64,000 bases of DNA, from positions 30,630,001-30,694,000 of the forward strand of contig CM119372.1 of the NCBI GenBank assembly GCA_051294905.1, in the 5' to 3' direction. The notes under the pieces were generated by a model. It was not told the origin of the DNA. It saw only the letters and a list, made by a program, of their open reading frames with translations, and ran no database searches. This document shows, piece by piece, positions 6,451 through 58,017 of this stretch (position 1 is its first letter; each line of letters starts with the position of its first letter). Source of the stretch: Botryllus schlosseri (Eukaryota). The translations under genes and the position numbers were made by a program.

Positions 6451-6857
6451 GTCTCATCGATCAGATCAGCTTTTAATGGATAAACTATTGCTAGAACTCG
6501 AATCTGGAACTTGTATCATTTAAAATTGGAAATATTGCATCCACATGTTTATCAAGAATTGAGTTACGGAGATCATAAAGTTAACATATCTGGGAGAGTG
6601 TTATTCGTCAGATTAAAATTTATTAATCATGGCAACCCAATTCGCTGGGTAAAATAGTCAGTTTATTTCTTGAGACAAAATGAAACAGGGTATTACACAA
6701 TCACTCACTGCGTCCATCGTGGTAGGTGCAGCTTTGCATGTTTTCTTCAGTGCCATAGAACACAAATACTCTCGTCACAACACGGCCCTAATTGCAATAC
6801 AACTACTCAAGTAGAGTAATAATTTCCAAAGCATTCAAAAATACTGGAATTGTAAGT

Positions 6858-6929
6858 TGCTGACGATTACCCCTGACGAGTGTCAGCCGAAAATATTCGG
6901 GTTCATTTCAATATGAATATACTATTTAA
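6858..6929 (+). ncRNA. Minimal type I hammerhead ribozyme in a short retroposed repeat (copy 1, intact, 5'-truncated)
   Basis: ACCC-CUGACGA-G[UGUCAGC]C-GAAA-AUAU-UC-GGGU at 6869-6902; GCUGAC 6859-6864 is complementary to loop II; 13-bp direct repeat tggaattgtaagt at 6845-6857 and 6930-6942. Confidence 0.8.
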
Positions 6930-7440
6930 TGGAATTGTAAGTAAAAAACGATAATTTCAACAAGCCCCGATGTAGTCTGAAATAGCAGACAAAAACAGAG
7001 CGTCACAGACTAACTTTGATATGTGCCTGCATGACCAATGACATGGACCATCAGAAGTAGCCTATGATGTGTTATTTCAGTACAAGGCTACACTCCAATA
7101 TGTTACAAATTACAAAATTTGATGTATCACTTCGTCTAGCAATGAACAAGCGCCTAGTATGCAATTGACAAATGAAATAATGTATTCAGAGTATCAGCAG
7201 GAAAAAGTTTGACATGCGCTCGAATTCTCAGTAAAAGAAAAATTATTGGTATAACACCTGACTCTGCCTGCTACTATCAAGTTCATTGTAACCATCCGAT
7301 ACCGAACAAACACACGATCCTCCATGTTTTATTAAAATATTGTATGATTGCGCCGTCAAATAACGGAATGCAAGCTCTCGATTTCAGCCACGGGCCGCAA
7401 AATCCATCATCAGATATCCCCAGAATCTCACTCTCACAAA

Positions 7441-9696: not shown

Positions 9697-11518
9697 GTCA
9701 AACTTTTGAATTGCGTATCAAGCGATTGACTTACACTGCTGTTAATGAGAGAGAGAGAGAGAGTTAATTTATCAACGCAAAAACTCAAACATTGAATTCA
9801 AATTTTACATGACACAAGAGGATGGATCGTGTGTAGGTCATGAAACAATTTCTGATATAAAATGAATAGTATAGTAAGTAGGGATATATGATTTGAAATA
9901 TTTTTGTATTATAGCTACAGTTACAGTACAGGATAATGCGATTGCACTTAAGGGAAGAGTTGTTGTAACGTAAACCTACAAAAGTAACAAGTCGCAAGTC
10001 AATTTCAGATTTACTATTTATAGATTTCGCTCGAGTCAAGTCACAGCCCAGACTGGAATCGGTGGTTGCTTTCGACAACAGGTTGTGCGTGACAGACGGA
10101 TTTCTCCCGTGATAGGAAATTTTCATCCACGTGACGGAAACATTTTTCGATCTGAATTGATAATGAATTACTTATTAAACGACACAATGTGCTAAAATAG
10201 ACCTGGTATACGCTGGGCTAGGGTTAAGTCGTATATTCACTGCTGCGCAAATGCCACACTTGCTTGCGTTCATTGTAAAGCGCAAGCGGCTTATTTTGGA
10301 TCTGGACTCTGGTATATAGCTTTGTGACGTCAGGATAATTCATTAATCGGCGTCATCAGATGTAAATGCTCGCGTGACGTTGCGCATGCTGTTGCGACCG
10401 TACTCACTCTGGGTCACAGCTAATATACCTAAATTTCAACGGTATTCCATTTTATTTGATTTTCAACAGGAAGTGGACAATGAGATTTGGAGCATACTGG
10501 AACTCGTCCTTGATGCAGCACCTATATATGAGTCTGACTACTCCGACCCTGATATTATATTATGGGGTTACCGGTAAGTATAGATAAGATTTAAGATAGA
10601 CTAGTACGGTACTCGACTAATCGTACTTACATGTAAACAACTCTATGAGTCTAATATTATGTCTAAGAATGGTCCAAACCCGACATTGGTTGCAACGAAC
10701 CAGACACCGTAACTGAAATCACACAACCTTTTCCTGAACCTGGAAGAGTATCAGCAAAAACAACAACCCATGCAGGCCATGCTTATAGCTTAATCGCTTC
10801 GAAAATCCTGGACGCCGACGCGCCGAACGTCATGAATTCTACAGGGTTGGTTCGATTATGTTCACAATAAGAGCAATTCTGTTCACAATAAGAGCAGTCT
10901 CATGTTCACAATAAGAGCAGTCATGTTCACAATAAGAGCAGTCTCATGTTCACAATAAGAGCAGTCGTTGTATTCACAATAACATCAGTCGCAGCACCAT
11001 CATATCCCCCTGACACGATGTCCGAGTGGCAACATAGTCCGAACACAACCCAGACATGATGTCCGAACACCCCCAGACACGATGTCCTAGTGTCAACGCA
11101 GTTCGAACACACTCCTGACATGATGCCCGAACACCCCTAGACACGATGTCCGAATGTCAACGCAGTCCGAACACATCCCAGACACGATGTCCGAACGCCC
11201 CCCCCCCAGACACACCCCAGACATGAGGTCCGAACACCCCCCAGACATCGTCAAGACACGATGTCCGAACTCGCCACGCCCCAGACATGATGTCCGAGTG
11301 TCAACGCAGTCCGAAGACACCCCAAACATGATTTTATGAACACACCCTAGACTTGATATTTGAACACAGGCCGGGACATGATGTCCGAACATGATTTCCG
11401 ATTGGCAACGCAGTGTGGACACACCTCAGTCATGATATCCAAACACCCCCAGACATGATGTCCAGAGTGTCAATGCAGTCCGAAGATACCCCAGACATGA
11501 TAATACAATAAGATCAGC

Positions 11519-12115
11519 CATGTTCACAATAAGAGCAGTCTCATGTTCACAATAAGAGCAGTCATGTTCACAATAAGAACAGTCCTATGTTCACAATAAG
11601 AGCAGTCATGTTCACAATAAGAACAGTCTCATGTTCACAATAAGAACAGTCTCATGTTCACAATAAGAGCAGTCATGTTCACAATAAGAGCAGTCTCATG
11701 TTCACAATAAGAGCAGTCATGTTCACAATAAGAACAGTCTCATGTTCACAATAAGAGCAGTCATGTTCACAATAAGAACAGTCTCATGTTCACAATAAGA
11801 GCAGTCATGTTCACAATAAGAGCAGTCTCATGTTCACAATAAGAGCAGTCATGTTCACAATAAGAACAGTCTCATGTTCACAATAAGAGCAGTCATGTTC
11901 ACAATAAGAGCAGTCTCATGTTCACAATAAGAGCAGTCATGTTCACAATAAGAACAGTCTCATGTTCACAATAAGAGCAGTCATGTTCACAATAAGAACA
12001 GTCTCATGTTCACAATAAGAGCAGTTATGTTCACAATAAGAACAGTCTCATGTTCACAATAAGAGCAGTCATGTTCACAATAAGAACAGTCTCATGTTCA
12101 CAATAAGAGCAGTCG
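11519..12115 (+). repeat. Minisatellite of mostly alternating 23/21-bp units ATGTTCACAATAAGA(G/A)CAGTC(TC)
   Basis: More than 25 near-identical tandem units read directly; the same unit forms the element's outer arms at 10858-10970 and 13355-13463 (inverted). Confidence 0.95.
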
Positions 12116-12775
12116 TTGTATTCACAATAATATCAGTCGCAGCATCACCATATCCCCCGGACACGATGTCCGAGAGGCAACATAGTCCGAACACCACCCA
12201 GACATGATATCCGAACACCCCCAGACACGATGTCCGGGTGTCAACGCAGTCTGAACACACTCCTGACACGATGCCCGAACACCCCCAAACACGATGTACG
12301 TACGTAAAGTACGTGCGTACAGGTACAGCGACCCAGTCGAGACCGATAGATTGATGACTCGAAGTTGACTCAAAAAAATTAGCTTTGAGTCACGAGTCAA
12401 TTTACATTTTGATACACAGAGTCAAGTTAAGTCGTGTCTGCGGGGGGGGGGGGTCGGACATCGTGTCTGGGGTGTGATCGGACTGCGTTGACACTCGGAC
12501 ATCATGTCTAGGGCGTGGTGAGTTCGGACATCGTGTATGGATGAGGATGTCTGGGGGGTGTTCGGACATCATGTCTGGGGTGTGTCTGGGGGGGGGGCGT
12601 TCGGACATCGTGTCTGGGGTGTGTTCGGACGGCGTTGACACTCGGACATCGTGTCTGGGGGTGTTCGGGCATCATGTCAGGAGTGTGTTCGAACTGCGTT
12701 GAGACTCGGACATCGTGTCTGGGGGTGTTCGGACATCATGTCTGGGTTGTGTTCGGACTATGTTGCCACTCGGAC

Positions 12776-13290
12776 TAGGGCTGGGCAAAATCGAGTACCT
12801 GAGTGATTCGATTCTGAATAACGTAATAGGCTTCGAGTCGAGTCGATTATTCGAGTATCAGTCATTATGACGTCATAACAGAATGTCATATGTCAAAGAT
12901 CAACTGAGCACTTTATATGCTACCACAAATAATATGATGCCTGTATTCCGTCACATTACAGATACCCCGGTATTTTTCAACCATACGGATTTCTTTGCAC
13001 TTTGTATCAATGTTGCGGGATGATCATAATTTTGGAAATGTGTTATTTTCTGTAACTTTAGTAGCTTGCACTATCTGTTTCGTATGCTGCGATACGTCCA
13101 ATCAAGGTTTCAAGGCATCCACGGAGGAAATTAGTATCGGAATTATAATTCTCATTGACAAATTACCTTTCAGTGGCGAGGAACGTATAATTTCAGTACT
13201 CGAAAAAATCGACTTTTACTACTCGACTCGATTCATTAAAATTAATGCTCGATTCAGATTCGAGTACTCGAATCATTGTGCCCAGCCCTA
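12776..13290. mobile_element. hAT-type MITE nested in the Foldback right arm
   Basis: TIR TAGGGCTGGGCA / TGCCCAGCCCTA; perfect 8-bp TSD actcggac (12768-12775, 13291-13298). Confidence 0.9.
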
Positions 13291-21300: not shown

Positions 21301-24300
21301 CTTGGCGGAAATCGGTAATTTTTCCCGTCGATTGGAAGGACATTCATTATCGAGGTATTCTAAATTACCACCGGAATCCTGTTACACCGATTACGAAGCA
21401 ATAGCCTAATGGTCGCAGTTTTGTGGTGTTATGAAATGATGAAAATATTTGTAAACTGATACTGACACTGGCCCAACCGACAGTCTTTCTATCCAAATAA
21501 AGGTTGTGTAGTAGCTGGAAAAGTGTAATTATGCGTGAATTTGTATTTGTTTTTGGAATATTCCTCGATCTATCTTGAGGTATGGTCTCCTGAGAGTCTT
21601 AGAGGATTTGTATTTGAAGTGAATTTTCATTCCACTAGTCACTGGATTTGAGTAACTGCGCTCCTGTTCGCAAGTATAATTTGTATCAAAATGTTGTACT
21701 CGATTTATACCGCGGTGTATAAGTTCTGAGGTAGGATCTGGTTTCCTATGCCATGGGTGTATATTCACACCATATAATCAGGGGTGGTCCCTGGGTGCTA
21801 AGAATGTAGACAATGTTGCCCCGACGATTGACAGACATAAGTCTGTAGCTCCTCGTCACAATCTACTTATTCAATCGCGTGCTTGAGTACTATTGCGACT
21901 TATCTTTTCCATTTCCACTCCAATTAGGTATGGGTCGGATAATAAATTAGGATATAGATTAGAAAACTGCGATGGGTATAGCTGGCAGAAGTGACCTGCG
22001 TATTACCACAAATTATATCTAGCTAACTGTATTTACGCACAGCACAGATAAATTTGTCACAAAGTTATCGAAAGCAGTCCACAATCATTAACCAGAGGCG
22101 GTCAAAGTAGGCTACCCATCGTTTCCTGTTCCCTTGGTGCTCAAGCTGAATGGTGGCAATGTCGTGATTTTATACTCAAGTACAAATTGCTTTTCCCAAG
22201 ACACGTCAAAATTACTGCAGCTGGTAGTAGAACATGCAGATTTGAAAAGTTCTCACGTAAGTAGTTTCAAAACGTAGGTTTGGTCATGCGTTACAAACTA
22301 TATTAGTATCTACTTTTGAAATTACAAGATGTTTCTATCACGACCTATGCGTGGTGCGTTCAACTTCTCCAGTCGGCGGGCCGGATATGAGAAAATGAAG
22401 TACTTGGCCGGCCAGATTCCTGAATCGATACATTAAACGCGTATTTATCCATCCGTACAAGGATTAACCGTATTTAATGTAAACTTCAAGTTTGAAGCGT
22501 AGGCACCAATACAGTATTAAATGAATTTAATCACGTAATGTACTTCAATAGCTGTTGAAGTCAATCAGACGTCTGTGGTCGATCAGATTTGTGAACAGGT
22601 TCTTTGAACTCTGGCTGCATGTAGGACACAAGGAAAAGAAGTAGCTAAAGAGGATCTAACAATCAATATTTATTTGTGTCCAGAAAAACCAAGAATAATC
22701 TACAGTCACAATAATTTGACGTATAGTAAGTAAGTAGTGGAGAATTGGCGCAGATTGTGACCTCGGGCCATATTATCACGTAAGACTGAAAACTGTCTGC
22801 GGTCCGCTCAAAATCACGTCGCGGGCCGTATGTTGCCCGTCCCTGACCTACACAATAGAAATATTGCCACTGGAAATGGGTGCGATTTTCGGAAATATAT
22901 TCAGTATACGTGGTACCCGAATATTTCGTTATGGCAATTTCACTTGTATACGTAACGGAAACATAACATATCCCAGAATTGCTTTCTAATTTACAAAATC
23001 CAAGACTAAAGAGTAAGTAGATTTTTTTTCAAAAATAGTGGAACTAGCTAAAACATAATTGAGTAAGTAGTGCCAGTAGGTGATACGTGCTTTAATATCC
23101 CATAAAATAAAACGACTAAACTACTGGTAACCTCTGCAAATCACTTCATACTTTTCAGATTGCTCACAACCTGATTTCCTCACTACTCTCTACCTGTGTG
23201 CCTTACTCGCATAGTTTCGACTGCTTTTATTTGAACGGTGTTTGACGTATCCTTCATGAAGTTTACAGCTCGTCGGAAATGATTGACGCTATTATTTTGT
23301 ATTGCTCGCATGTGGTATTGTAATGAGAAATCGGAACAGGGATGTCATTTCCTGTTGGTTAAGCGGTTTGTGGATGCATGTCGGATGATATACTTAGCAT
23401 CTTAATCATTCGGAGGATTACGGCGTTCGACGCATTCTACCAGCCTCTGAAAATCTGTGATTGTTCAGTTTTGGGCTCATTGCGGTTCATTGCCAGACAA
23501 CGCGTAAACAAACATTGTAATGTAGCGGATCCATCGTTATCGCAAAACGTTTGTAGCAAAGTAGAATGAAGGCAGTTCTGTAACGCTCAATTAACATCAG
23601 TGTCCACTGTCCATAGGCGTACCCTGGAGGAAGAATTGATAGGGACAGGTTGAAATGGGGGGGGGGGGGAGGGGGTTGTACGATGGTATTTGACACATTA
23701 GCGCCGAACCAGAGGACACTAGATATGCTTGTAATTATTGTGGATATGCGGCGTACCCACGATTTCGTCATCCTCACAACCTTCATGACCATACGGTTCA
23801 AAAGCATAATTATCAATTAATAACTTATTTACTTTGCAAAATGTACTGATGCTTATCAGAGCAAACCAACAACCCTTTAGGTGAACCCGTAATTTTCCAA
23901 GTATAGTACGCCCCCATGTATAATACGCACCCCTAAAATAGCATGCAAATTCTGGGAAAAACCCTGTACCCATGTATAGTACACACCCTGCATTTCAGTA
24001 CATGAATAGTTCCGATTTAGTACACGATGTCATTCTGCTTTGCGATGTCACTGTTGAACAATCATGAAATAACGATCGCAAATCATTATACAATTAACAC
24101 TTTGACTGCCAACGATCCTAAATTTAGGATTTTACTCAATCCCAGAAAGTGCCAGCTATCCTATATTTAGGATATTTTTCAAATGCGTACAGCAAAGTCT
24201 GGAATTGGTTCTATCCCCGGATTTCGGGCGTATTCGACGATACTCAATAGGCTTGTTTTCAGAAACAACCATTTTCGTTACCGGAAGTATTTTTAAAAAA

Positions 24301-27300: not shown

Positions 27301-30300
27301 CCCGATTCTTAGAACCGGATAGAAATTTAAATCTGTGAGCAGCGATCTGTTCATAGATTTGCTAATTCTACTTTTGGTTCAGTTCCAGGACACACAATGC
27401 TGACAGCATCATAACCATGTTAGCTTCAAATACACTTCTACTATCTGTAGATAAAATATAAATACCCCAATTCTACGCATACCGAGAAAGAATCTACCTG
27501 AGACACGCGCGAATCGTTTTTTTATAAGCACATCACTGAGATTATTAAACTGGAGTGGCCAATCTGAAATCCCACTCGTGGTCCGAATTATGTCAATCTC
27601 GTTTAGGATATCTGTGATGTTTATCAGTTGAAACCTTTCAAACTGCGTGGGTCTTGAGATCGGGCTGTCGCGGCAGAAATTAAACATAAATATTAATATA
27701 GGAAGTATTTACCTTGGAACAGGGGTATTTACCTTGGAACAGGGGTTCTCAAACTTTTTAAGACACGCCCCCCTTTATGATGGTGAAACATTTCGCGGCC
27801 CCTTATCGTCATATCACAAAACGCAACCAGGATGCTAGCCAACCTAACGGATAGTTTGATGGCATGGAAGGTTACGACTGTGGATGGGAGATTTTCAACT
27901 ATTAAAATCATACCGAATACCGAGCAATAATAATGAAGTGGATTACAATCGCGCGGAGCGCGAAAAATTTTTTCAGTTGAGCTCAGCTTCGCACCCCCTT
28001 CAGATGCCTTCACACCCGCAAGGGGGGCGTGCACCCCAGTTTGAGTACCATTGTCTTAAAATTATCATGGTGAGATATACTAAGAAAAAGCTTAATCAAG
28101 TCCCTACCTTAATTCGATATTGAGTATTTGAGTATTTTATCAATATTTAAAAAAAGTTTCTTTAGACTCTCGCGGGCCGCACAGAACGGGCCGTAGTTTG
28201 CCCACCCCTGGTCTAGGCCAACGAACCGACATCTTGCGCAAGACGATATTACAGATGCGAGTGCTCGGGCTAACGGTTATGTCGTGCGCACCAGGTCTGT
28301 TGGACAGGGTATGGTAAGGTATGGTATGGTATGGAAGTATGGTATGGTATGGATCGATATTTTGGTATGGAATATGGAACAATGCAAGTATGGTATGGAA
28401 TGGAAGATTTTAATCTATGGTATGGAACGACTTTTCCATACTTCCATACATTGGTGCTTTATACATTTTATCGTGATCTGTGTGTCTGTCATGTGATGCA
28501 ATAATTGGTAATGTAGGCTACTACCTCATTCCTTAAGTGACGACAGCTTACAAGCAATCATGATGCAACGAACTAAATGCTCAAGGTGATTGATGATTAG
28601 ATTTATTCCGGAACATTGTCCGCACATCTATACTATTTACATACCAAATATATCTTATTGGTCATATTTCAAACGATCTCGCATTAGGATTATAGATCAG
28701 GGAGTGGGGTAGATGTAAGTTTGGAATTCTCGCCACGCTAACCCCGACCAAATACTGTACTAACAATCATGCAGATTGCCTGCAGCTGGGATATTTTATG
28801 GGTGCGCCTATACTATAAATTATTTTGCGAGTATTTACTTCAAACTTGCATGTGCCTCATGCCAATGTACCGGAAATGAGATGATAGGGGGAGATGTGGT
28901 ACCGATGGATCACTGGGACCGAAAATACTTTGAAAATTCTCTATGATAATTCCATGATTACACTCCGCATGCTGGCAAGATCTTTCCTCACATACAAAAA
29001 AATTCGACGTGCGCGAGCAATGGGGTCTCTCACAGATGATTTTTGTTTTAGCGGGTGTAAACTAAATTTAGATCGACATATACGTTTTTCTTTGTAACCT
29101 TCAACACGAACAAACCAGCAATCATTTTTATTGTGAAGTGTAGGGCTTGTATCAGGCTATATAATGGCACCGATTATTTTTTTCAGTACTTTCCTTGAGT
29201 GGGCTTTTCTTCGATTCATGTATAAAATTCGTGGGGTGGGGACCGATGATACAATAGCCAAATCAAGCAAAATAATCAAGCATACTAATCATGAAACAAA
29301 TAAAACATGTCTACGTACAGAAAATCTTTATGTAATAATTGCATATGATGTTTTGTCGCTATAACGAGGTATTTGGAAGTCACACTGTCGATTTTCGGAA
29401 AATATGTATGTACCCTCAAATTTATAAGCCCGAGCCTAAATCGCAACGTGATTTTATGACAACATTTGAGTTAATAATTATTCTATTTTTTGACAGTTGC
29501 GACCAAACATTCTTCTCGGGCTTGCTGTAGCTCACATTATAATACTGAGCAATAAAAGTAGTCACATTTGAGTTTTTTAGGGTATATGTGTCATAGGTCC
29601 CCGGGTCGTGTGCCATTGGACCCACCGGGTGGGGACCGATGACACGTTCGAGCAACAAATTTTGAACGCCCATAAATATTTTTTGAAAAGACGGATATTC
29701 ATGTATATGTGCGCGATAGGTAGAGCTTGTATCAAAGTGCTAAGCCAGCAAAAGATCTGCTGTTTTCGGCTGAACATTTCAGGGCCAGCGATCATTTTCC
29801 GATTTGTGATCCATCGGTACCACATCTCCCCCTATGCATGGAGCAGGGGCGGGCAACTTCTCCAGTCGGCGGGCCGGAAATATGGAAATTAGGTACTTGG
29901 CGGGCCGGAATGCTGAATGGATAAATTATTCGCCCATGTATACAAGGAATAAATCGTATTTAATGAATGTATTTTATCGACAGCAATGTCACTTCAAAGC
30001 CATTTCTCGCCGATAATGGCCACAAGGTTGATTTGAGAATCATAGCATTGTCATACAGGCACCGCCGACCGCCGTGTCTGCTTCTTTCTGATCAAATACC
30101 TCACGGTGCAATCCTTAATTAAGATTTCAAAGCGTTTGATAAGCCCGGTACCCAAAATTTACCAAGAATAAATTAATTAGGGTTCAGCACATCGTAAATG
30201 CCGATAATGCAAGTCTTCTCGCTTAGACGAACTTACGCGTAACCTGCACTATCGCACGCTGCACAGTGCGCACACCTATATAATAACATACAGTCACTAA

Positions 30301-33300
30301 AATTTGACGTTTAGGCAAGTGATTATGTAAGACGGGAAACTGTCCGCGGGCCGGAAAAAATCTTGTTTCGGGCCGCATCCGGCCGGCCGTAGGTTGCCGG
30401 CCCCTTTTATGGACAGTACTAGATAACAATCTGCTCACTATCTCATTTTGCTCGCGGAAGCAGTAGAGTAGACGTACACGGCACCTCACCACCGTGAACT
30501 AAACCTCACCAAAACAGACTCTATAAAACTATTACCAGTACTTAGATTCGCATTAGATTCGCTAGTTTAACCAATAATGACATCCGAAATATCAATAATA
30601 TAGGTGCTATAAAAGGTACTATACTTATGATATTGAAGTATTTGAAAGTATGGAATGTATGGAAAGTATGGTATGGAAAATTGCAAGTATGGTATGGAGA
30701 GAGTAAGGCAAGTATGGAGTATGGAAAATTCTCGTTCCATACCATACCATACCATGCCCTGCTGTTGGAGATGCGACTGATTACGCAAGCGATTATATCT
30801 TGCGCACATGGCCTCTTGTATATGTATATGCGATTGTTTGGGCCTGTCGTTGACGCGATGAATTAGCGAGAATTGCCGCGCGTTAGTGCCTATTAGTGAC
30901 CTAATTTCGGTCGCGTACAAACGGCAAACCAACTCAGCGGGAGATCCCGTGCTTGTGCAACACGCTTTCCGCTAATTGGCAACGCGTTACACTCTATAAT
31001 ACGAATTACTGTGCGCGATGGCTGAAAGTGATGCGCGATTGGAAACAATTAAGTTTTTTTATCGAGGCAGATTTTTTTCAAGGCTTGTTGTACCCATGTA
31101 TAATACGCACCCCCCTATTTTAGGGCAAAAAATCGTGAAAATTTAGCGGATTATACATGGAAAATTACGGTACTTTATTTTGGAATCTAAAAGTTATTAC
31201 GCACTATGATGTCATAATATGCATATGTTCAAATGTAAAAATTTTTGGTGTAGCTCTTTTTGCGTTACTTTCGCTTTAACACCTAAATAAAGAGCCGAGC
31301 TCCGAAATTCCGTGTCACTACCAAAGTTATATACTTACAAGTGGCCACTAAATAGGGTATGGAAGCTGCTAAGGTCTTACGTTTGTTACGTTTGTTACTA
31401 ATTATGTAATCAGACGGAGCGACGGTAGAGGATAAAACGAACATCTTTAGAGATGTCGATTTGGACGCACGCGCGATCAGAGACATTTTATCGTTGCTCG
31501 ATTAGACTGGCAAATACACTTTTTCCTGCTCTAAATAATTTTATCACCCATACGCACCGCAAGCTGCATTCCCGGCTCCCAATAATTCGCGAGCCAGATT
31601 TTCGTGATAGTCTTTTTGGTCGGAGCGCGAAATTGGACAATGTATATGTCTGGGAATTGGAATTCTTTCCAGCACATAATCTTTACTTCAATAAGGCTCT
31701 GCGAACGTTAATCTGGAAATGTAGCAATTAGCCAACAATTGCCGCGCTGCGAGCTATTGAGAGCCACATTGTGTTCAACGTAAAAGACAGCGCTTCTCGT
31801 TTGTAATCATCTGGTACCAATATTAATTATTGTCTGCAATGTACCTTGATAGTTGATACACTCGTACTCCCGTATAGCCGCGCAATGTCTAGTTCAGTTC
31901 GCTACTCGCACTACTCATTGTGCGTAGAATGATACAGCATCGTAGGCCCTGACACATCACCAGATTCTTGGTGACACAAATTCTGGTTATGTTATAATCG
32001 TTTCAACTGGAACCTTCTATATACCTATAAAACGATCACCGATGGACCGACGAGTAATTAGCGCACCTAAATCGGAGTTCAAATAATTGTGTTTTCGGAA
32101 GAAATTAGATTTCTATCGATAAGGCCGTGACGCGCGTTCATGTTGCTGTTGCTGCAGTTGCATTTAAATATTCGCACCATTTCAATATTACACTCGATTG
32201 CATGGTTTGATTATAATCAGTGCAGTGCCGGTATTAAAACTTCACATTGGTGTTTAACTCTGTTCATCTTCACATCAATGGGCCGCAGTAACTTCCGTTC
32301 TCGTGCGATTGTGACGTCATATATGCCAAGTGATTGTGACGTCATTGGACTCCGCATACCCACACAGAATCATTGTGAATTTATGATGTATTGAGCAACA
32401 ATGATCTCACAATGCCTTGGTCAAAAATTTAGGGCACGAGCGCATCTTTCTGCCAGCCTTAATTATACCACTTTCAGTGATCACTACCTACTAGAAGTAT
32501 TCGTTGATGTTGATTACAAGGATAAGAAGAGGCAGCAATATCTATGACATCCTGAACTTAATGGGAATACCATGGATTTGAAAGCACGATGCTTGTACAT
32601 TGGGACTTTATTCTGTCAATGGACATGGACGATTTTCAAATTCGCAGTCTGTGACCAATTGAACAAATTTTGAAACTATATTCTGGTGCCGTGCTACTGA
32701 GTTGCATATCACCCAATTTTTAAGTTGATTTCACTAAAAAAATTATGAATCTATCATTAAACTGATATCGTCTTGTCAACAATAAAAGGTTTAATAGTTG
32801 GTACTAGGAATTCAAAGCAGTACAGGTAAAATTGGAAAAGTATAAAACCAACATCAATTGAAAAAGTAATGTAAGTAGACTAAACCTACTTGAGTACTTC
32901 AAAATAGTCAGGTACTTGATGATCATAATCATGAACTGTCAGCATTTCTCACTGTGAATACTTCAAGTGAATACCGCAGATAATCAGATTTAATATATTT
33001 TCAAATCCAACTCCGATATTGCTCAAATTCATTTAAAAGTCGCATTAAATTGAAAAATATAAAGAATATGACATTATCTATTTTTGTCTTGATGTTTTTT
33101 GCAGCATATACACCGACTCAAGAAATACATACACACCGCTGGGCATATCAGTTACAGATATAGCCTTGTACGGCTTTCTAAGTCTTGCACCACCCCTCCA
33201 TGCTATCCCGAAAATGCTGAGCGCCAAGTGGAGAAGCCACAGAGATACCAGTTTTACTGATCAAGTTGTTAGTCTAGTCTGGGATTGAACCCATGATCAA

Positions 33301-42300: not shown

Positions 42301-45300
42301 AGAGCAGTAGCCACTGATCCACATCAGCTGTCTCTCATTACTCGATTTGGCTTCGAGTACACAAGTTATTGCTTCCAGCCGTAGAAATAAGCGATTTTAA
42401 AAGCAGTTACTTAGTGATTCATGTACTAATTCTTACCCTCACATCTACAGCCGGTGACCATCACGAGCCCAGCATTAAATCTCTATAGTAGGGGCTGTTA
42501 TCTGCCAACGTTTACATCCGCTGCGGACTATGCTAGGACCGTTATCGAAAGCATCGTTTTTCTGTGGGCCGGCGTATTCTTGTATTTCTCTGTGACTGAA
42601 ATTCGTTTCCAGGCAAGATCTTTATATTTTTAATGGGTTTGACGTTGAAAATATTGTTTTTTATACAATTTTGACAGGGTTTAAGGCTCTTTCTAGCCAC
42701 TTTGTACGATGCGCCCACCAAAGCCGGATTTCTCTTCTCTTGTTTGTTGGTTATCATCGTTTTACCTCTTCGAATGACGTGCGCGATCGGAGGCGAAGAC
42801 ATCTTGATATCTCTCAGCATCTGCTGCTGTATACCGTATTGCCTCTTCTTTTGCAGGTAAATATTCAAATTCTGGCAGAAGTGGTGGGACCTGTCTTTTT
42901 CTCCTGGCAAACCAATGTTTCCTGTAAGGATATCAGCAAATGGGAAAGATCGCTATGATTGATTGGCTGGTATCGAATCTTACAATAGCCTCATGTGTCA
43001 AAGGGCCGAAACTACCTTTGGTAGAAGTACAAAATGATTAGTACGTAATTTGTTCAAGTATGAAGGAATAAAAATAACTTGAGTTTTGGACTTGTTCTTG
43101 TCCTTGGCCTTCTACAACTGTCCACCTTGCTAATAAAAATGAAGAATGGGAAGCAGTGTTAGGAATATGTGCAATTTCAATTATATATACGCTCTCTTAT
43201 TTGATCTCATTTCATGCTGGTGGCGTCATATTTCGAGATACGATTGTTGATATACAATATTCTTTCCAATTCTCTACTAGTTGCTAACGATTACCCCTGA
43301 CCGAAAATATTCGAGTTCATTTCAATATGAATATACTATTCAATTGAAAATTGAAGTTCTGTACCTCCAAGAAGCTATTTAAATACGGTATATATCTGTG
43401 GTCTAGAATTTGTCATTTTGAAAGTTTCACTTTCAATTGTATCCTAAAACTTCAATCTACTTGGCAAGAGCTGAGAAGGAAAGTAGTTATTCTCCTCATG
43501 AAGACTTGCTATATTTTGTACTTTTCCGCAATCATCCCGAATCCAACTATCACATCGGTATAGCTTGACTTCTGTTGACGTATTTTTGTTCTTATTTGGT
43601 TACAGAGGCTTCAAATTGGTCGGTCCTTTCATTGTGATGATCTACAATATGATAGCCGGTGATCTGTTACGATTTCTCATTATCTACCTCATCTTTCTCC
43701 TTGGATTTTCACAAGGTAACTATGCTGGTTTGAATTCATATACATGCCGAGAAAAATAATTACAGTAACACTTAATTAATTAATGAAATAGTGTATTTTA
43801 CAGCTCATTTGAATCCATTAATCCGTTATTCCTTAATCCGTTAAATCCGTTTTGCGGAGTTGCATTTTGATTTTGGAATCCCTCTCATCACTGCTAAAGT
43901 TACACAAAAATGATAAATTGAGATATAGCTCAAATTCCGGCGTTATATCAAGTTCGGGATGTCATTTTTACTAGGGATGGTCAGTAATAAAGTGCTTCTA
44001 CTTTTTTGGCATACTCTAGTACAGGGGCGGGCAACTTCTTCAATCGGCGGGCCAGATATGGGAAAATGAAGTGCTTGGCGGGCCGGATTCCTGAATGGAT
44101 ACATTAAACGCGTGTTTATCCACCTATACAAGGATTAATCGTATTTAATGTGAGCTTTGAGTTTGAAGCATAGATACCCAAAAGCAGTATTCAATGAATT
44201 TATTAAAGTAACATTTGTCAATAACTGTTGAAGTCAATGAGACATCTGTGGTCGATCAAAGTTGTGTACAGGTTCTTTGAACTCTGGCTGCATGTCAGAT
44301 ACAAAGAAGGCAGAGAAGTATTATTCGTGTCCGAATTTAATGGAAGAATAAACTACAGTCACTATAATTTGACGTAGTATGCAAGTAGTGGAGAATTGCG
44401 GAAGACTGTGACCGACGGCCATATTATCGTTTAAAACAAAAACTGTCTGCAGCCCGCTCAAAATCACGTCGCGGGCCGGATGTTGCCCGTCCCTGCTTTA
44501 GTAGGACACTACTTACTCAGTGAATATGTTTTCAGACTACTTCCTATCCTGCTGAATGGTTTTCAAAAGTAAAATCACTTACTTTTTGACAGCTTGGATT
44601 ATGTAAAGTATTTTAACTGGAGGACTTTTCAGACCTTCCGTTTTCTACCCCTAATTTTGGCATATCTAGAAAATTGCTACTGTTTGTTGTAATTGTGAAG
44701 AGAGAGGTAGGCAGATTCTCCAATATAGAAAATGAAGTACTTGTCGTGCCAGATTCCTGAATCGATAAATCAATCCACCTATGCTAGGAAGCAATTGTAT
44801 TTAATGTAAACTTAAGTTTAAAGCAGAGAGACCAAAAACAGTATTCAATGAATTTAATAACGTAATGTACTTAAATAGCTGTTGAAGTCAATGAGGCATC
44901 TGTGGTCGATCAAAGTTGTGAACAAGTTCTTTGAACTCTGGCTGCATGTCAGACGTTGAATAGAAACACTTAGTACTGATTGCACATGAACATCAGTTAG
45001 AATTGGAACGTAGCTTTGTCAAGTTAATGTTCATGATCGAAAATGTTTGCTGGCAAATGTCCGCAGCCCTGTACAGAACAAGTAGTTTCAACTTTCAACA
45101 ATCACTATTATTTGTGTCCGTTCAGCATTTAATTATTACACTAATCAGCCTAAATTTCTCTTTGAATCATTGATATATTTTTCCAGCTTGAGGCAAGGCA
45201 TGAGATTGAATAGATAGCTAAGCCTCCAACACTTAGGGATTTATTTTGGATGCAAACTCCAACCCGCGGCCCATTAGTGTTGCACCTGAGGGAATGTACC

Positions 45301-48300: not shown

Positions 48301-49268
48301 TGCACTTTCAAAACTAGCCACCTCCGATTATCTGCTAAAAGCATACGACCCCTTGAACAAAGCTTTTCGAAACTACTTACTTGAGTACTTTTCGGACCTG
48401 TCATATTTTAATTCCGCACAAATTAGTTTTGACATGTCTTGCGAACCGCTACTTGTGATCAAGTAGAAATTGATGGCGTTACTTCTACTTCTACTCGAGT
48501 AACAACTCTGACTAGCTTGACCGCCTCTGTTTACACATCCCGATTTGCTCCAAGCTCGAGTTGGTAACTCCGCGGTGTCCCGCAATATTTCATAGCTTCC
48601 AAACCAGTTACTATTATTACTTTGCATGCCGAGGCCGTTTCACACGACTATCAGTTTATATCAGGAGCGGGCAAAATGACAAAATCAAGCATACAAGGAA
48701 TATATCGTACTTCATGTAAACTTCAAGTTTAAAACATAGAGACCAAAAACAGTAGTAACATCATGTACTTTAATAACTGTTGGAGTCAATGAGACATCTG
48801 TGGTCGATCAATTTTGTCCACAAATTCTTTGAGCTCTGGCTGCATGTCGGACGAAGAAACCCTTAGTAAAGACTGCAGGTGAACATCAGTTAGATTGGAG
48901 CGCTGCTTTCTCTTGTTCATGTTCATGGTCGCAACTGTTTCCTCGCGAATGCATGTGAACCCTGGCCACGGGCCTTATTATCAACTAAGACCGGATACAT
49001 GTAATGTCTCCGGGCCGTATGTTGCTCATCCCTGATTTATATGTTCTCCAACAGTCTTCGCCTTAGGTGCAGTACAAAAATTTTGCGATGTCACAAATGA
49101 ATTGCGCCTTCACTTGCGAAATGACGTCTTATCGCCCAAAATCAAAAAGACTTTGCCAGTTCCTAACTAGCTCTGCTACCATTTCAGATCGCCAGTGACG
49201 AAGATCTGGCAACGCTGAGCTCCTACGTTAAAAAGATGCATCGCGGAGTCAATAATACTGACGTATGA
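15302..49268 (+). CDS. nan: TRPV cation channel, Nanchung/OCR-like, 17 coding exons, ~758 aa
   Basis: Exons 15302-15403, 15724-15833, 33429-33598, 34669-34809, 35613-35722, 37083-37207, 38501-38654, 38942-39018, 39670-39811, 41546-41764, 42451-42612, 42678-42856, 43606-43715, 45442-45587, 46940-47074, 47880-47993, 49188-49268 (2277 nt, phases compatible). Motifs: MGN...[72 protein letters not shown], pore [36 protein letters not shown]. Confidence 0.9.
15440..15625 (+). mobile_element. Possible second tRNA-derived SINE-like sequence in TRPV intron 1
   Basis: A-box-like TAACGCAGTGG and B box GGTTCGATTCC at tRNA-like spacing; no second copy in the window. Confidence 0.4.
16767..18383 (-). CDS. 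spns1: Spinster homolog (SPNS family MFS lysolipid/sphingolipid transporter), uninterrupted CDS, nested in TRPV intron 2
   Basis: 538 aa with ~12 hydrophobic segments: [90 protein letters not shown]. Confidence 0.93.
   Translation of the reverse strand: MTDSTTQPNRDTWVKRDDSIVGSSYNVTDSQSSLLPVEKQPTHTEPQDPDTIHDLPKWKRYAGVAILTYINLLNYIDRYTIAGVLMDITQNFHIDNAQAGLLQTVFIISYMLVAPIFGYLGDRFNRIWIMAGGMLVWSGFTLLSSFIQSPDRFLLFLLTRALVGIGEASYATIAPTLIGDMFVGPKRTQMLSVFYFAIPIGGGLGYIIGAAVAEALGGWQWALRVTPVFGVIGVFLLLFVCPNPVRGASETSSRGANVGVRHSYLEDLRYLTGNMSFIWVTLGFTFSSFVIGSLTLWGPTYIANSQIATGALPACQGNACQNANISLIFGVITCVAGFAGVGIGAETARRWKIHGKLNADALVCAYGLLVGSPLLFFGVEYAKSHLTVAWILIFFADLSLCVTWTLISDMTLYVTQPNRRSTANAVQLLIGHLFGDAGSPYLLGLMADAIAADMPDTYTTKYASMKMSMYVTLFACVIGAVAFFVASFYVVEDKKKVDDFLNNLELSEDNADSGSSGTDPPSDQVGDIRNSENATVQN
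22352..22845 (+). mobile_element. hAT MITE, CAGGGGCGGGCAAC family (degenerate left end)
   Basis: Colinear with 44022-44495; right end GTTGCCCGTCCCTG. Confidence 0.75.
24098..24550. mobile_element. piggyBac-like MITE with TTAA TSD
   Basis: TTAA-CACTTTGACTGCC...GGCAGCTAAAGTG-TTAA; the empty site aatcattatacaattaacggcattgtc is seen in the next tandem unit at ~24672-24698. Confidence 0.8.
24758..26232 (-). mobile_element. hAT (Charlie/SPIN-like) deletion derivative with transposase remnant
   Basis: TIR CAGGGGTCGGCAACC; TSD gtttaggc on both sides; minus-strand remnant [32 protein letters not shown] (hAT C-terminal dimerisation domain). Confidence 0.85.
26241..27012. mobile_element. hAT MITE (CAGTGGTTCCCAACC family)
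   Basis: TIR CAGTGGTTCCCAACC / GGTTGGAAACCATTG; flanked by gtttaggc and gtctaggc; contains a fragment of another hAT MITE at ~26400-26460. Confidence 0.85.
27021..28210. mobile_element. hAT MITE (CAGGGGTGGGCAAAC family) containing a nested hAT MITE at 27740-28052
   Basis: Perfect TIR CAGGGGTGGGCAAAC / GTTTGCCCACCCCTG; TSD gtctaggc on both sides. Confidence 0.88.
28887..29832. mobile_element. TIR MITE flanked by TA
   Basis: TA-GGGGGAGATGTGGTACCGATGGATCAC...GTGATCCATCGGTACCACATCTCCCCC-TA. Confidence 0.85.
29843..30406 (+). mobile_element. hAT MITE related to the CAGGGGCGGGCAAC family
   Basis: Left end matches 44022; right end GGTTGCCGGCCCCT. Confidence 0.75.
33075..33327 (-). mobile_element. 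Old, diverged copy of the tRNA-derived SINE
   Basis: ctccatgctatcc, tgctgagcgcc, ggattgaacccatg and agaagccggac align with the SINE at 13784-14044. Confidence 0.7.
36564..36894. mobile_element. hAT-type MITE (TAGGGTTGCCAT termini)
   Basis: TAGGGTTGCCATA / TATGGTAACCCTA with AAGAGGACAC-type subterminal motifs; TSD degenerate. Confidence 0.7.
43205..43340 (+). mobile_element. Hammerhead-repeat family copy 2, catalytic core deleted, in TRPV intron 12
   Basis: Colinear with 57865-58017 but reads CCCCTGA-CCGAAAATATTCGAGT: 10-nt deletion (cgagtgtcag) plus substitutions in helix I and the pseudoknot strand. Confidence 0.85.
44022..44495 (+). mobile_element. hAT MITE, CAGGGGCGGGCAAC family
   Basis: TIR CAGGGGCGGGCAAC / GTTGCCCGTCCCTG; TSD ctctagta / ctttagta; further partial copies at ~44710-44955 and 48662-49034. 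Confidence 0.88.
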
Positions 49269-50404: not shown

Positions 50405-50419
50405 GAGGCATGTCTGTCG

Positions 50420-51297
50420 CAGCACAAACATATCCCAGACACGATGTCCGAGTGACAACATAGTCCTAACACCCCAGACATGATGTCCGAACACACCTTG
50501 GGCACGATGTCCGAGTTGCAAAACTGTCCGAACGCACCCAAGACATCATGTCCGAACACACCCCAGCCACGATGTCCGAGGGGCAAAACAGTCCGAACTC
50601 ACCCCAGATACGATGTCCGAATGGCAACACAGTCCGCACATTAGGGCTGTTCAAAAATAACTTTTTTTTTCGGATTCCAGCCATTCAGTGATTAAATTGT
50701 CAGGTTACCTTAAAAAATGCTGCACACCAAATTTGGTTCAATTCTAACAAGTATAGGGCTCCGCGGATCAAATTAAAATTTTAAATTTATACAGGAAAAT
50801 TGAAATAAAAAAAATTTACAAATTTTTCTGTCAACCCCATGAAATTGTTGAGCTGTCTTCAGAGACGACGCAAAAAAAATTTGACTCAATTCGGACTAGT
50901 AGAAGTGGAGTTATTGGAGTTTTTCGTTGATAATTCTCCAATTATCCTTGATTGGTGGATAATCCGAGAATTATCAACGAAAAACTCCAATAACTCCACT
51001 TCTACTAGTCCGAATTGAGTCAAATTTTTTTTGCATCGTCTCTGAAGACCGCTCAACAATTTCATGGGGTTGAGAGAAAAATTTGAATTTTTTTTTTTAA
51101 ATTTTACGTAGTAAATTAAAAATTTTAATTGGCTCTGCGGACGCTTAGACATGTTCGAATTGAACCAAATTTGGTGTGCAGCCTTTGTTGTGGCAACCTG
51201 ACAATTTAATCAGTGAATGGCTGGAATCAGGAAAAAAAAGTTATTTTTGAACAGCCCTACCGCACATACCCCAGACTCGATGTCCGAACACCCCCTA
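50420..51297 (+). repeat. Fragment of the Foldback GACACGATGTCCGA tandem-repeat arm, split by a MITE
   Basis: Same ~22-25-bp units as 11000-11500 and 12140-12770. Confidence 0.8.
50642..51259. mobile_element. Fully palindromic hAT-type MITE (618 bp)
   Basis: TAGGGCTGTTCAAAAATAAC...GTTATTTTTGAACAGCCCTA; arms complementary up to a centre near 50950; perfect TSD ccgcacat (50634-50641, 51260-51267). Confidence 0.92.
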
Positions 51298-57693: not shown

Positions 57694-57842
57694 ACCGGCT
57701 TTGGAGTAAAATCTGTTTGCGATACATGATGGATCAGCACACACTTAACTTCGGAAACGGAATTACTACCCTAAGTGTTGGAGGTTTACCTAGGCTCCTC
57801 CTCGCCACCTCATCCGCGTCAGCGGTGTCTTACAAAAGCCTA

Positions 57843-58017
57843 AAAATAGTACATTGAACGTTCTCTCATTCGAAATTTCATGCTGGTGACGTCATATTTT
57901 GTGATGCGATTGTTGATATACAATGTTCTTTCCAATTCTCTACTAGTTGCTGACGATTACCCCTGACGAGTGTCAGCCGAAAATATTCGGGTTCATTTCA
58001 ATATGAATATACTATTT
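57843..58017 (+). ncRNA. Hammerhead-repeat family copy 3, intact minimal type I hammerhead (57949-57994)
   Basis: Identical to copy 1 over the ribozyme: CTGACGA 57963-57969, GAAA 57979-57982, predicted cleavage after C57988; 9-bp direct repeat aaaagccta (57834-57842, 58018-58026). Confidence 0.8.

Follow-up and report, generated by a model that had tools for sequence, protein, structure and literature searches.

Hammerhead ribozymes have been known since 2014 to reside in the pseudo-LTRs of Penelope-like elements (PLEs) (PMC4209133). The minimal hammerheads described by Cervera and de la Pena (2014, PMC4209133) are of type I, with a helix I of 4–5 bp, a conserved G10.1-C11.1 pair, and a helix III that consists of A15.1-U16.1 and a palindromic insert, an arrangement expected to act as a dimer. 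A U3-A8 core variant occurs, and most copies lie in truncated elements, some of them as close pairs on opposite strands. Stem II of these hammerheads is an ordinary hairpin with one unpaired base at its 5′ end, the cnidarian rows of supplementary figure S3 likewise have a hairpin stem II, and the word "pseudoknot" is absent from the main text and from the searched part of the supplement (PMC4209133).

Hammerheads can tolerate replacement of the stem II hairpin, as indicated by the portions of two other reports considered here (PMC3088659, PMC11300833). The first concerns a tested type II hammerhead (2011) of metagenomic origin, in which stem II has a single pair and a 6-bp pseudoknot links loop I with the 3′ tail; it has a normal helix III and is active as a monomer, and the length and spacing of the pseudoknot are critical for its activity (PMC3088659). 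The second describes the crystal structure of a hammerhead with a pistol-like fold (Zhan et al. 2024, PMC11300833; PDB 8YDC type), in which a 6-bp pseudoknot serves as helix II and the partner strand, located 5′ of helix I, belongs to an additional 5-bp hairpin (helix IV), whose loop it forms, and an A-minor triplex linker is present; that report attributes the pseudoknot hammerhead motif to Breaker and co-workers. Type I hammerheads related to those of PLE pseudo-LTRs are also found in animal non-LTR retrozymes, which, according to the sections consulted of the two reports, consist of tandem short non-coding units with circular RNAs and have been proposed to be non-autonomous PLE derivatives (PMC7229834; bioRxiv 10.64898/2026.07.22.740005).

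We analysed a window of 64,000 nt from the genome of Botryllus schlosseri, in which an initial annotation had placed a type I minimal hammerhead of the PLE kind with a palindromic helix III. The motif is borne out at 6859–6902, where all coordinates of the module were reproduced from the sequence and by a generic parse from the coordinates (Table 1). The core C3-U4-G5-A6-N7-G8-A9 lies directly 3′ of the helix I strand (6873–6879), as in a type I hammerhead, and G12-A13-A14, A15.1-U16.1 and a non-G at position 17 follow (6889–6898), with U-C preceding the predicted cut between 6898 and 6899. The hexamer 6892–6897 could form a 6-bp intermolecular helix between two copies. Dimer-type hammerhead variants with a small stem III are reportedly the subject of an abstract by Lunse, Weinberg and Breaker (2017). 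In place of a stem II hairpin closed by G10.1-C11.1, this pair (G6880-C6888) stands alone in cis and closes a loop of 7 nt, the final six bases of which (6882–6887) are the exact complement of 6859–6864 and form with it a covarying 6-bp pseudoknot.

The module shares with the published PLE hammerheads the type, the length of helix I, the conserved G10.1-C11.1 pair, the make-up of helix III, the U3-A8 variant, the location in a pseudo-LTR and the prevalence of truncated copies, some in close opposite-strand pairs. Unlike in those hammerheads (PMC4209133), the strand that would form the 5′ side of stem II is found upstream of helix I here, which turns stem II into a pseudoknot. The combination of a one-pair stem II with a 6-bp pseudoknot is that of the type II hammerhead, as far as the cited part of PMC3088659 goes, whereas here the hammerhead is of type I, loop II pairs with the 5′ flank of helix I, and helix III belongs to the dimer type. 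The position of the partner strand and the order of the segments equal those in the part of PMC11300833 used for comparison, but here a helix IV hairpin finds no support, G10.1-C11.1 is kept and helix III is minimal. Judged from its sequence, the module is a minimal type I hammerhead motif with stem II in the form of a pseudoknot, and it is predicted to cleave. We found no description of a pseudoknotted stem II in PLE hammerheads in the PLE literature that we searched, which took in the supplements in part.

Table 1 Features of the hammerhead module and of the three copies of the repeat in the window.
Feature	Position	Strand	Remarks
Copy 1 target-site duplication, left	6845–6857	.	13 bp; identical to 6930–6942
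Copy 1	6858–6929	+	72-bp PLE insertion, extreme 5′ truncation; hammerhead module, 14-nt leader, first 17 nt of ORF
Pseudoknot 5′ strand	6859–6864	+	Pairs with 6882–6887; replaces 5′ strand of stem II
Linker, pseudoknot strand to helix I	6865–6868	+	3–4 nt, first base G in every family parsed
Helix I 5′ strand	6869–6872	+	Partner 6899–6902
Catalytic core box, positions 3–9	6873–6879	+	CUGANGA type
Stem II region	6880–6888	+	G10.1-C11.1 = 6880/6888; linker nt 6881; pseudoknot 3′ strand 6882–6887
GAAA box	6889–6892	+	G12, A13, A14, A15.1
Helix III	6892–6897	+	Only the A15.1-U16.1 pair, enclosing a 4-nt insert; hexamer self-complementary
Predicted cleavage site	6898–6899	+	After C17 (6898); position inferred from hammerhead numbering
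Helix I 3′ strand	6899–6902	+	Partner 6869–6872
Start codon and first 17 nt of PLE ORF	6913–6929	+	Start codon 6913–6915; insertion stops here ("end 1")
Copy 1 target-site duplication, right	6930–6942	.	Identical to 6845–6857
Copy 2	43189–43383	+	Older, ~94% identical over shared part; 10-nt deletion at 43300/43301; 40-nt "tail" 43344–43383
Copy 3	57843–58019	+	Last four ORF codons and stop (57843–57857), 3′ UTR, module, ORF start (58003–58019)

The 72-bp insert between identical 13-bp direct repeats, as first annotated, was reproduced from the sequence, and it corresponds to positions 6562–6633 (offset 296) of a genomic locus, L031. The last 3 nt of the left duplication also match the element, which indicates microhomology at the 5′ junction of copy 1. 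Copy 3 contains a module (57946–57992) identical to that of copy 1 and has a flanking duplication of 7–9 bp (57834–57842 and 58018–58026). Target-site duplications of such variable length uphold the earlier view of retroposed copies that differ in their 5′ truncation. Three copies of the hammerhead had been claimed, and this holds for copies 1 and 3 but not for copy 2: its hammerhead is destroyed because the 10-nt deletion, equivalent to approximately 6877–6886, takes out G10.1 together with part of the core and the larger part of the pseudoknot 3′ strand. Copy 2 scores just 15.3 bits with a covariance model of the module. The common 3′ end point attributed to all three copies had to be abandoned, as copy 2 runs 40 nt further, through a tail common to other genomic copies. 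There are two alternative 3′ ends 40 nt apart (L031 6633 and 6673), and loose ends occur at both in contigs of four out of four runs. An optional tail of 30–40 bp matches what is described for PLEs in parts of PMC8557442 and PMC11167929, and the 5′-truncated insertions, partial tandems (pseudo-LTRs) and adjacent inverted truncated copies that we observe likewise agree with the relevant part of PMC8557442. Head-to-head inverted pairs of copies are present among the genomic loci, and a sister family contains tandem arrays with a period of 2778.

Searching the 495-Mb genome with a 177-nt query gave 712 first-look candidates; among 41 genomic matches that were scored, 40 are 99–100% identical and one is 98% identical. 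The 176 nt of the repeat start within the last codons of an ORF at loci L031 and L032, 13 nt ahead of its stop codon, and the open frames ending in the repeat at these loci are 800, 661, 559 and 470 aa long. The 800-aa frame contains an RVT_1 domain (E 7e-9); of 8000 database candidates that were scored, 2226 are relatives of it, the best with 63% identity. RVT_1 is matched by 18 of 19 aligned relatives and PF01541 (GIY-YIG) by 8 of the 19 (best 1.4e-4), the protein of the element itself (family A) giving no match to the latter at E ≤ 1; the Y...Y-x-G...R...E positions are invariant in the C-terminal GIY-YIG-like region of the alignment (A1). The initial annotation had recommended looking for linkage to a Penelope RT/GIY-YIG ORF, and an RVT_1 ORF, with a C terminus that is GIY-YIG-like, does adjoin the repeat. 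The element has a single ORF with a reverse transcriptase domain, as PLEs do.

Because the repeat directly follows an RT open frame of at least 800 aa, it constitutes the 3′ UTR/pseudo-LTR of an autonomous PLE. The module sits between the stop codon and the next start codon, which is to say in the pseudo-LTR, where PLE hammerheads are located. An ATG follows the predicted cut by 3–24 nt in 13 out of 13 sequences examined, and it opens a conserved N-terminal peptide that continues into a long ORF in the tandem copies L036 and L037. Beyond L031 and L032, the comparison covered 3′ pieces of ~700 nt from eleven further elements. Taken together, these findings make it likely that the copies in the window are 5′-truncated pieces of a young, very abundant autonomous PLE, the pseudo-LTR of which bears a predicted pseudoknotted hammerhead.

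The module occurs in three families (A, B and C) that share 58–59% protein identity and in 7 of 80 metagenome loci; its covariance model was searched against 99 sequence sources. In 11 distinct sequences, 96.9% of the cells of the pseudoknot are paired and all six of its six pairs have changed on both sides, the G10.1-C11.1 pair is invariant (11/11), and the 3-8 core pair is UA in 6, CG in 3 and UG in 2, with U-G throughout the metagenome family. The whole structure is 85.4% paired in these 11 sequences, versus 68.8% in shuffles (0 of 500 reach the observed value) and 30–45% when the structure is slid, values to be read with the relatedness of the compared sequences, which inflates the shuffle statistics, and with the choice of rows after the motif was seen. 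In a MAFFT alignment (A3), 6 of 12 rows are out of register for helix I, and re-alignment with the model left helix III ungapped. Helix I was judged on 8 rows that share the length of helix III (A5) and on a separate parse of 16 sequences. The in-register rows of A5 are 95.3% paired, compared to 82.7% in shuffles (0/500), and 4 of 5 helix I pairs have changed on both sides in them; helix I has at least 4 bp in 15 of the 16 parsed sequences. At the centre of the helix III palindrome we find GC in 6 and UA in 2 of the A5 rows, A15.1-U16.1 occurs in all 8 of them, and H17 is either C or U. The hexamer is fully self-complementary in 9 of the 16 and has one or two central mismatches in 5 more. Compensatory changes affect helix I and the palindromic helix III, the C3-G8 core pair, which is U-A in several families, and each of the six pairs of the pseudoknot. 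The pairing GCUGAC/GUCAGC between the upstream segment and loop II had been proposed from the sequence, together with a search for covariation in it and in helix I; the pairing is real, covarying across families, and covariation was found in both places. Judged by these comparisons of sequence, the predicted pseudoknotted hammerhead structure is real and has been kept across divergent PLE families.

Two further candidate pairings were considered and rejected. For a hairpin formed by the core and loop II, pairing is 70.4%, a value reached by 468 of 500 shuffles, with no change on both sides, and the candidate pairs of a helix IV hairpin around the upstream pseudoknot strand are 54.8% paired, equal to shuffles.

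It had been anticipated that standard annotation would miss the family. Indeed, the Rfam hammerhead models gave no match at gathering thresholds in the whole window and no match at E ≤ 10 on 6780–6990 (211 nt). With stem II as a pseudoknot, covariance models and stem-loop descriptors miss these copies, and the silence of Rfam is a limit of the models, not evidence against the motif. As a control for chance, we used a descriptor that comprises the core box, the G...C closing pair, GAAA, U-H, a helix I of at least 4 bp and a pseudoknot of at least 5 bp. This descriptor, composed after the motif was seen, matches the window twice, both times within copies of the repeat; 200 shuffles of the window that preserve dinucleotides gave 0 matches on either strand. 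For the family A monomer, the nested fold of minimum energy has two hairpins (−10.5 kcal/mol) in which both the core and the cut site are buried, and the predicted energies are +0.1 kcal/mol for the nested hammerhead pairs alone, −7.4 kcal/mol for the pseudoknot alone and −0.2 kcal/mol for the helix III self-duplex.

The stable competing fold predicted for family A would suit a structured RNA of hammerhead ancestry that is no longer mainly a ribozyme, serving instead as an RT recognition or positioning element or as a translation or 5′-end element. The constant location of the module, with the start codon shortly after it and the two insertion end points 31 and 71 nt downstream, would suit it too, as would the U-G 3-8 pair kept by the metagenome family. 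Metazoan PLE minimal hammerheads, moreover, cleave poorly in vitro (PMC4209133), and the cited portion of a study of one vertebrate PLE reports that hammerhead mutants leave insertion in vitro unchanged and that zero RNA-seq reads end at the hammerhead cut site (PMC11167929). However, it is precisely the catalytic bases that do not vary (core boxes, G10.1-C11.1, A15.1-U16.1 and H17), and the switch between C-G and U-A at 3-8, as in published active variants, is not predicted by mere protein binding. Ribozyme and recognition roles are also mutually compatible, and we consider it unlikely that the module has ceased to be mainly a ribozyme.

The initial annotation had inferred a hidden non-coding Penelope/retrozyme-like family, which would spread in trans and stand apart from any coding element. 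This we regard as very improbable, even though copy 1 is a mere 72 bp, non-autonomous derivatives of PLE pseudo-LTRs are described in animals in part of a recent report (bioRxiv 10.64898/2026.07.22.740005), and very short copies far outnumber ORF sequence, with a word depth in four out of four runs that is ~100-fold higher over the module than over the ORF (the depths being contig sums, not copy numbers). A steep excess of the 3′ end is what 5′ truncation is expected to produce, every longer copy that we examined continues into the RT ORF, the repeat is contiguous with the RVT_1 ORF in L031 and L032, and copy 3 itself includes the last four codons and the stop. The 41 genomic matches that were scored include no head-to-tail arrays of short non-coding units, the tandem copies that the earlier annotation had advised looking for and that would mark a retrozyme. 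Whereas retrozymes, in the sections of the literature cited above, form tandem short units, the copies here are dispersed, single and contiguous with an ORF.

A chance likeness to a hammerhead in an ordinary 3′ UTR repeat, the true structure being two simple hairpins, would account for the minimum-energy fold of family A and for the lack of an Rfam match, but is extremely improbable given the strong covariation of the hammerhead and pseudoknot pairs, the empty shuffles of the descriptor control, and a core/loop II hairpin that is no better paired than shuffles and shows no double-sided change. Terminal inverted repeats of a DNA transposon, which frequent minus/plus pairs with their shared ends outward might suggest, are hardly credible, as both arms of a pair are 3′ ends of RT ORFs that read outward, duplications of different lengths (13 and 7–9 bp) flank arms that stand singly, and an inverted 5′-truncated partner copy is a PLE feature in the part of PMC8557442 considered.

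From the observed anatomy, ORF link, insertion signatures and covariation of the autonomous PLE with its pseudoknotted hammerhead, we infer the following mechanism. Target-primed reverse transcription of the family A element would give rise to the 5′-truncated insertions seen in the window. In its RNA, a 4-bp helix I and the canonical catalytic boxes would be combined with a stem II cut down to G10.1-C11.1, and loop II would pair with the segment 3–4 nt upstream of helix I to form the 6-bp pseudoknot, one nucleotide bridging the helix. Stacked coaxially on G10.1-C11.1, the pseudoknot may provide a quasi-continuous stem II of 7 bp, a length comparable to the 6–8 bp of ordinary PLE hammerheads (PMC4209133). 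Because helix III has only A15.1-U16.1 around a self-complementary insert, the active fold would need two copies joined by a 6-bp intermolecular helix III. The RNA would then be cut after C17, 14 nt upstream of the AUG of the ORF in family A, and tandem or partial-tandem transcripts would yield RNA of unit length in which a short leader precedes the start codon. Isolated pieces like 6858–6929 are most likely inert relics.

Ribozymes that lie shortly before ORFs are described in non-LTR retrotransposons (HDV-like) and in RNA viruses (hammerheads), with a distance from cut to start of 7 nt in one viral case as against 3–24 nt here; in the passages concerned, either the class of ribozyme or the host differs from ours (PMC13725137, PMC6765202). 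By analogy, the nearness of the predicted cut to the AUG suggests that 5′-end formation may be coupled to translation.

Since PLE hammerheads are already established, the bare finding of another would be ordinary. What may be new is that one PLE lineage, represented by this genome and seven metagenome contigs, has rebuilt the minimal hammerhead into a working, self-cleaving variant with a stem II of one pair plus a 6-bp pseudoknot, unpublished for PLEs, a reading that we advance tentatively. If it is true, the variant evades the Rfam models and the stem-loop descriptors used in PLE surveys, and PLE groups said to have "only the catalytic core" or "no canonical hammerhead" may hold cryptic pseudoknotted ribozymes. 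In the part of PMC8557442 considered, supplementary file S1 lists "HHR_core" elements. Surveys in which some PLE clades were classed as hammerhead-free or "core only" should, we suggest, be redone using a descriptor that allows for pseudoknots. On the same condition, the cut 3–24 nt before the AUG would be the element's device for forming its 5′ end and setting its translation start, and the fixed position of the cut, shortly ahead of the start codon and of the two RT end points, would tie the predicted ribozyme to 5′-end formation within the unusual more-than-unit-length replication of PLEs.

With their compensatory differences in each of the four paired elements and at C3-G8, the families offer a natural mutational series for probing how a minimal hammerhead of the dimer type is stabilised. 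Counting against the predicted ribozyme, several single copies have changes at positions expected to matter: U4 to C (L069), G5 to A (L077), G10.1 to A (L102) and C3 to G (L033:601-647).

Inspection of the window sequence bore out the module elements, the 72-bp insert and the flanking 13-bp repeats that the initial annotation had described for the first of the three copies of the repeat in the window (copy 1; see table). An identical module is present in copy 3 (57843–58019), whereas copy 2 (43189–43383) is not a hammerhead, because 10 nt of the module are missing at 43300/43301, and extends 40 nt past the end point of copies 1 and 3. The earlier proposals that all three copies carry the hammerhead and share one 3′ end thus hold for copies 1 and 3 and fail for copy 2. 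A descriptor requiring all elements jointly, which was devised after the motif was seen, matched the window in copies 1 and 3 only and had 0 matches in 200 dinucleotide-preserving shuffles. The Rfam hammerhead search gave no match in the window at gathering scores and none in a 211-nt stretch with the limit relaxed to E ≤ 10, as expected from the claim that standard annotation would miss the motif; comparative evidence therefore had to settle whether the hammerhead is real.

Elements of the candidate hammerhead module in copy 1 and the insertion that carries it
Feature	Position	Strand	Basis or remark
Upstream hexamer (pseudoknot 5′ strand)	6859–6864	+	window sequence
Helix I 5′ strand, 4 nt	6869–6872	+	window sequence
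CUGANGA-type box	6873–6879	+	window sequence
Pair closing the 7-nt loop	G6880 and C6888		last six loop bases are the exact complement of 6859–6864
GAAA box	6889–6892	+	window sequence
Self-complementary hexamer	6892–6897	+	window sequence
U-C step ahead of predicted cut	cut 6898/6899	+	window sequence
Helix I partner strand	6899–6902	+	window sequence
Copy 1 insert, 72 bp	6858–6929		identical 13-bp repeats on both sides, 6845–6857 and 6930–6942

A search of the 495-Mb genome with the 177-nt copy 3 returned 712 first-look candidates; among the 41 matches scored, 40 were 99–100% identical to copy 3 and one 98%. Close pairs in opposite orientation were common among these matches, and in five fetched regions both arms of such pairs are 3′ ends of open frames that are read outward. 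The frames ending in the repeat, which starts 13 nt ahead of the stop codon, encode 800 and 661 aa in one region (L031) and 559 and 470 aa in another (L032). The 800-aa frame contains an RVT_1 domain (E 7e-9); of 8000 candidates scored, 2226 are relatives at E ≤ 0.001, the sole named one being an octocoral 'reverse transcriptase'. A reverse transcriptase frame thus directly precedes the repeat in L031 and L032, providing the link to a Penelope-like element (PLE) for which the initial annotation had suggested looking; the GIY-YIG link that it had also raised is seen in part, as the Pfam model matches 8 of 19 aligned relatives of the protein of this family (family A) but not the family A protein itself. 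Target duplications vary (13 bp and 7–9 bp), copies are heavily 5′-truncated, inverted partner copies are present, a sister family (family B) forms tandem arrays of period 2778, and copies end 3′ at either of two points separated by 40 nt; published PLE descriptions (PMC8557442, PMC11167929) agree on duplications, 5′ truncation, inverted partners, tandems and alternative 3′ ends. Given the reverse transcriptase frame in longer genomic copies and the PLE-type insertion features, the window copies are truncated insertions of an autonomous PLE, and not the separate non-coding family that had been proposed.

Another region (L033; C11:27748000–27757999) holds six family A tail fragments clustered within 10 kb, together with an 857-aa open frame that is unrelated and differs in its C-terminus. 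The family B arrays (C11:890702–905421, C10:6486196–6502461 and C13:6123874–6139597) contain at most four or five units of full length with intact 853–854-aa frames, arranged as two opposite-orientation blocks with their 5′ ends facing; the evidence points to very recent activity of this family.

A distantly related PLE protein, used to search the genome, yielded 5973 candidates, and 59 of the 60 scored had no internal stop (the other has a TGA). 3′ regions were taken from the distinct PLE families found in this way. Families A, B and C, whose proteins are only 58–59% identical, and three further variants share a module of the same build: a 6-nt strand, a 3–4-nt linker, a 4–5-nt helix I strand and the core box; then a G, a single nucleotide, the 6-nt complement of the first strand, a C and the GAAA box; and, at the 3′ end, a self-complementary insert, U-H and the helix I partner. 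Among 80 loci obtained by scanning metagenome contigs with the PLE protein alignment, the module was found in seven (L077, L078, L102, L106, L116, L135 and L138) with a covariance model of it and a parse of the sequences. Eleven other matches, in ten of the 80 loci, have the ordinary published form with a 4–7-bp hairpin stem II. Eight of these ten loci encode PLE relatives only 30–35% identical to family A; the others encode a 40% relative (L113) and a 68% relative (L106), the latter locus also having a partial pseudoknot-type match. Because both are on contig L106, the pseudoknot and hairpin forms coexist in one host. On that contig (607–3022), two ordinary PLE hammerheads lie on opposite strands, with the partial module at 2462–2491.

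In an alignment of 11 distinct module sequences (A3), pairing in the pseudoknot reaches 96.9%, with changes on both sides at every one of the six pairs; the first pair is GC in 3, UA in 3, CG in 2 and AU in 1. The 3-8 core pair is UA in 6, CG in 3 and UG in 2, and G10.1-C11.1 is invariant. The length of helix III varies between families, which left half of the MAFFT rows misaligned at helix I, and helix I was assessed in 8 rows sharing one helix III length (A5); here 4 of its 5 pairs change on both sides, and the palindrome centre is GC in 6 and UA in 2. Both helix I and the pairing of the upstream strand with loop II therefore show the covariation that the initial annotation had called for. 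The whole structure is 85.4% paired in A3 versus 68.8% in shuffles (0 of 500 reach 85.4%) and 95.3% versus 82.7% in A5 (0 of 500), figures that overstate significance because the sequences are related and were chosen after the motif was seen; the count of independent pair types and the controls with 3′ partners slid (30–45% paired in A3) are unaffected by kinship or choice of sequences. Of 16 sequences parsed, 15 have a helix I of at least 4 bp; the helix III segment is self-complementary throughout in 9, and 5 have one or two central mismatches in it. A rival hairpin between core and loop II, part of the family A minimum-energy fold, did no better than shuffles and showed no compensatory change; a hairpin enclosing the upstream strand was likewise without support.

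The conserved bases of the module are those of the hammerhead active site, and the change from C-G to U-A that positions 3 and 8 show is already known from PLE hammerheads (PMC4209133). The module is a putative self-cleaving ribozyme. Helix III is a single pair in cis, and two copies would be needed, pairing through the palindrome, a requirement also suggested for satellite hammerheads and those of other PLEs. The six pseudoknot pairs adjoin G10.1-C11.1 on a continuous 3′ strand, and G10.1 is joined to the far end of the pseudoknot helix by just one nucleotide. In standard pseudoknot geometry one nucleotide is enough to span the deep groove of 6–7 bp, so that the pseudoknot, stacked on G10.1-C11.1, could make a stem II of 7 bp, a predicted length equal to that reported for ordinary PLE hammerheads. 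Each part of this idea has a precedent: in a hammerhead that was tested, stem II has one pair and a 6-bp pseudoknot is essential (PMC3088659), and a crystal structure shows a 6-bp pseudoknot in place of helix II (PMC11300833). The nested minimum-energy fold of the family A monomer has two hairpins (-10.5 kcal/mol) that hide the core and cut site, and metazoan PLE hammerheads in print are weak in vitro.

The first ATG lies 3–24 nt 3′ of the predicted cut in 13 of 13 sequences examined. The peptide encoded from this ATG is conserved, agrees with the N-terminal consensus of the aligned proteins and, in tandem copies, is continuous with the long ORF; the stop codon of one unit is therefore followed by the module and then by the next unit's start codon. 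The insertions end 17 and 57 nt into the ORF, fitting both the internal reverse-transcription starts and the 'tail' described for a vertebrate PLE (PMC11167929). Cleavage would leave an RNA with a 3–24-nt leader before the AUG (14 nt in family A). In non-LTR elements and RNA viruses, ribozymes directly upstream of ORFs have been tied to translation and to the formation of 5′ ends (PMC6765202, PMC13725137), and by analogy we hypothesize such a role in the family A PLE. An AATAAA hexamer lies in the short leader in families B, C, E and F (L036 at about 1227–1245; L074, L069 and L073 directly 3′ of the module) and is absent in A and D. Every PLE family looked at has an ACGTCA-centred CRE-like motif in the 3′ UTR, about 70–110 nt upstream of the hammerhead (window 57887–57894; L036, L067, L069, L070, L073 and L074), which may be part of the promoter reported for PLE pseudo-LTRs.

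Already in print are PLE hammerheads, their helix III of the dimer type and the U-A variant of the core, as well as hammerhead pseudoknots, even with a one-pair stem II. Literature searches found no PLE minimal hammerhead in which a pseudoknot with the helix I 5′ flank makes up stem II; pseudoknotted stem II is absent from the main text and searched supplement of the 2014 paper on PLE hammerheads (PMC4209133), in which all cnidarian examples have a hairpin stem II. The pseudoknot module matters chiefly as an example of how such ribozymes evade current search models.

Other repeats in the window include large tandem-repeat blocks (families D1–D3 and D5–D7) at 10745–12788 and 50419–51295, with periods of about 21–23/44 and about 64 nt, which occur on both strands, are inverted around 12200–12450 and recur 38 kb away. 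A dispersed repeat of several hundred bases, unrelated to the PLE tail (D4, D8, D9, D13, D16 and D18; 22351–22845, 29844–30392, 44022–44953 and 48706–48851), is present in 3–4 copies at 63–95% identity.
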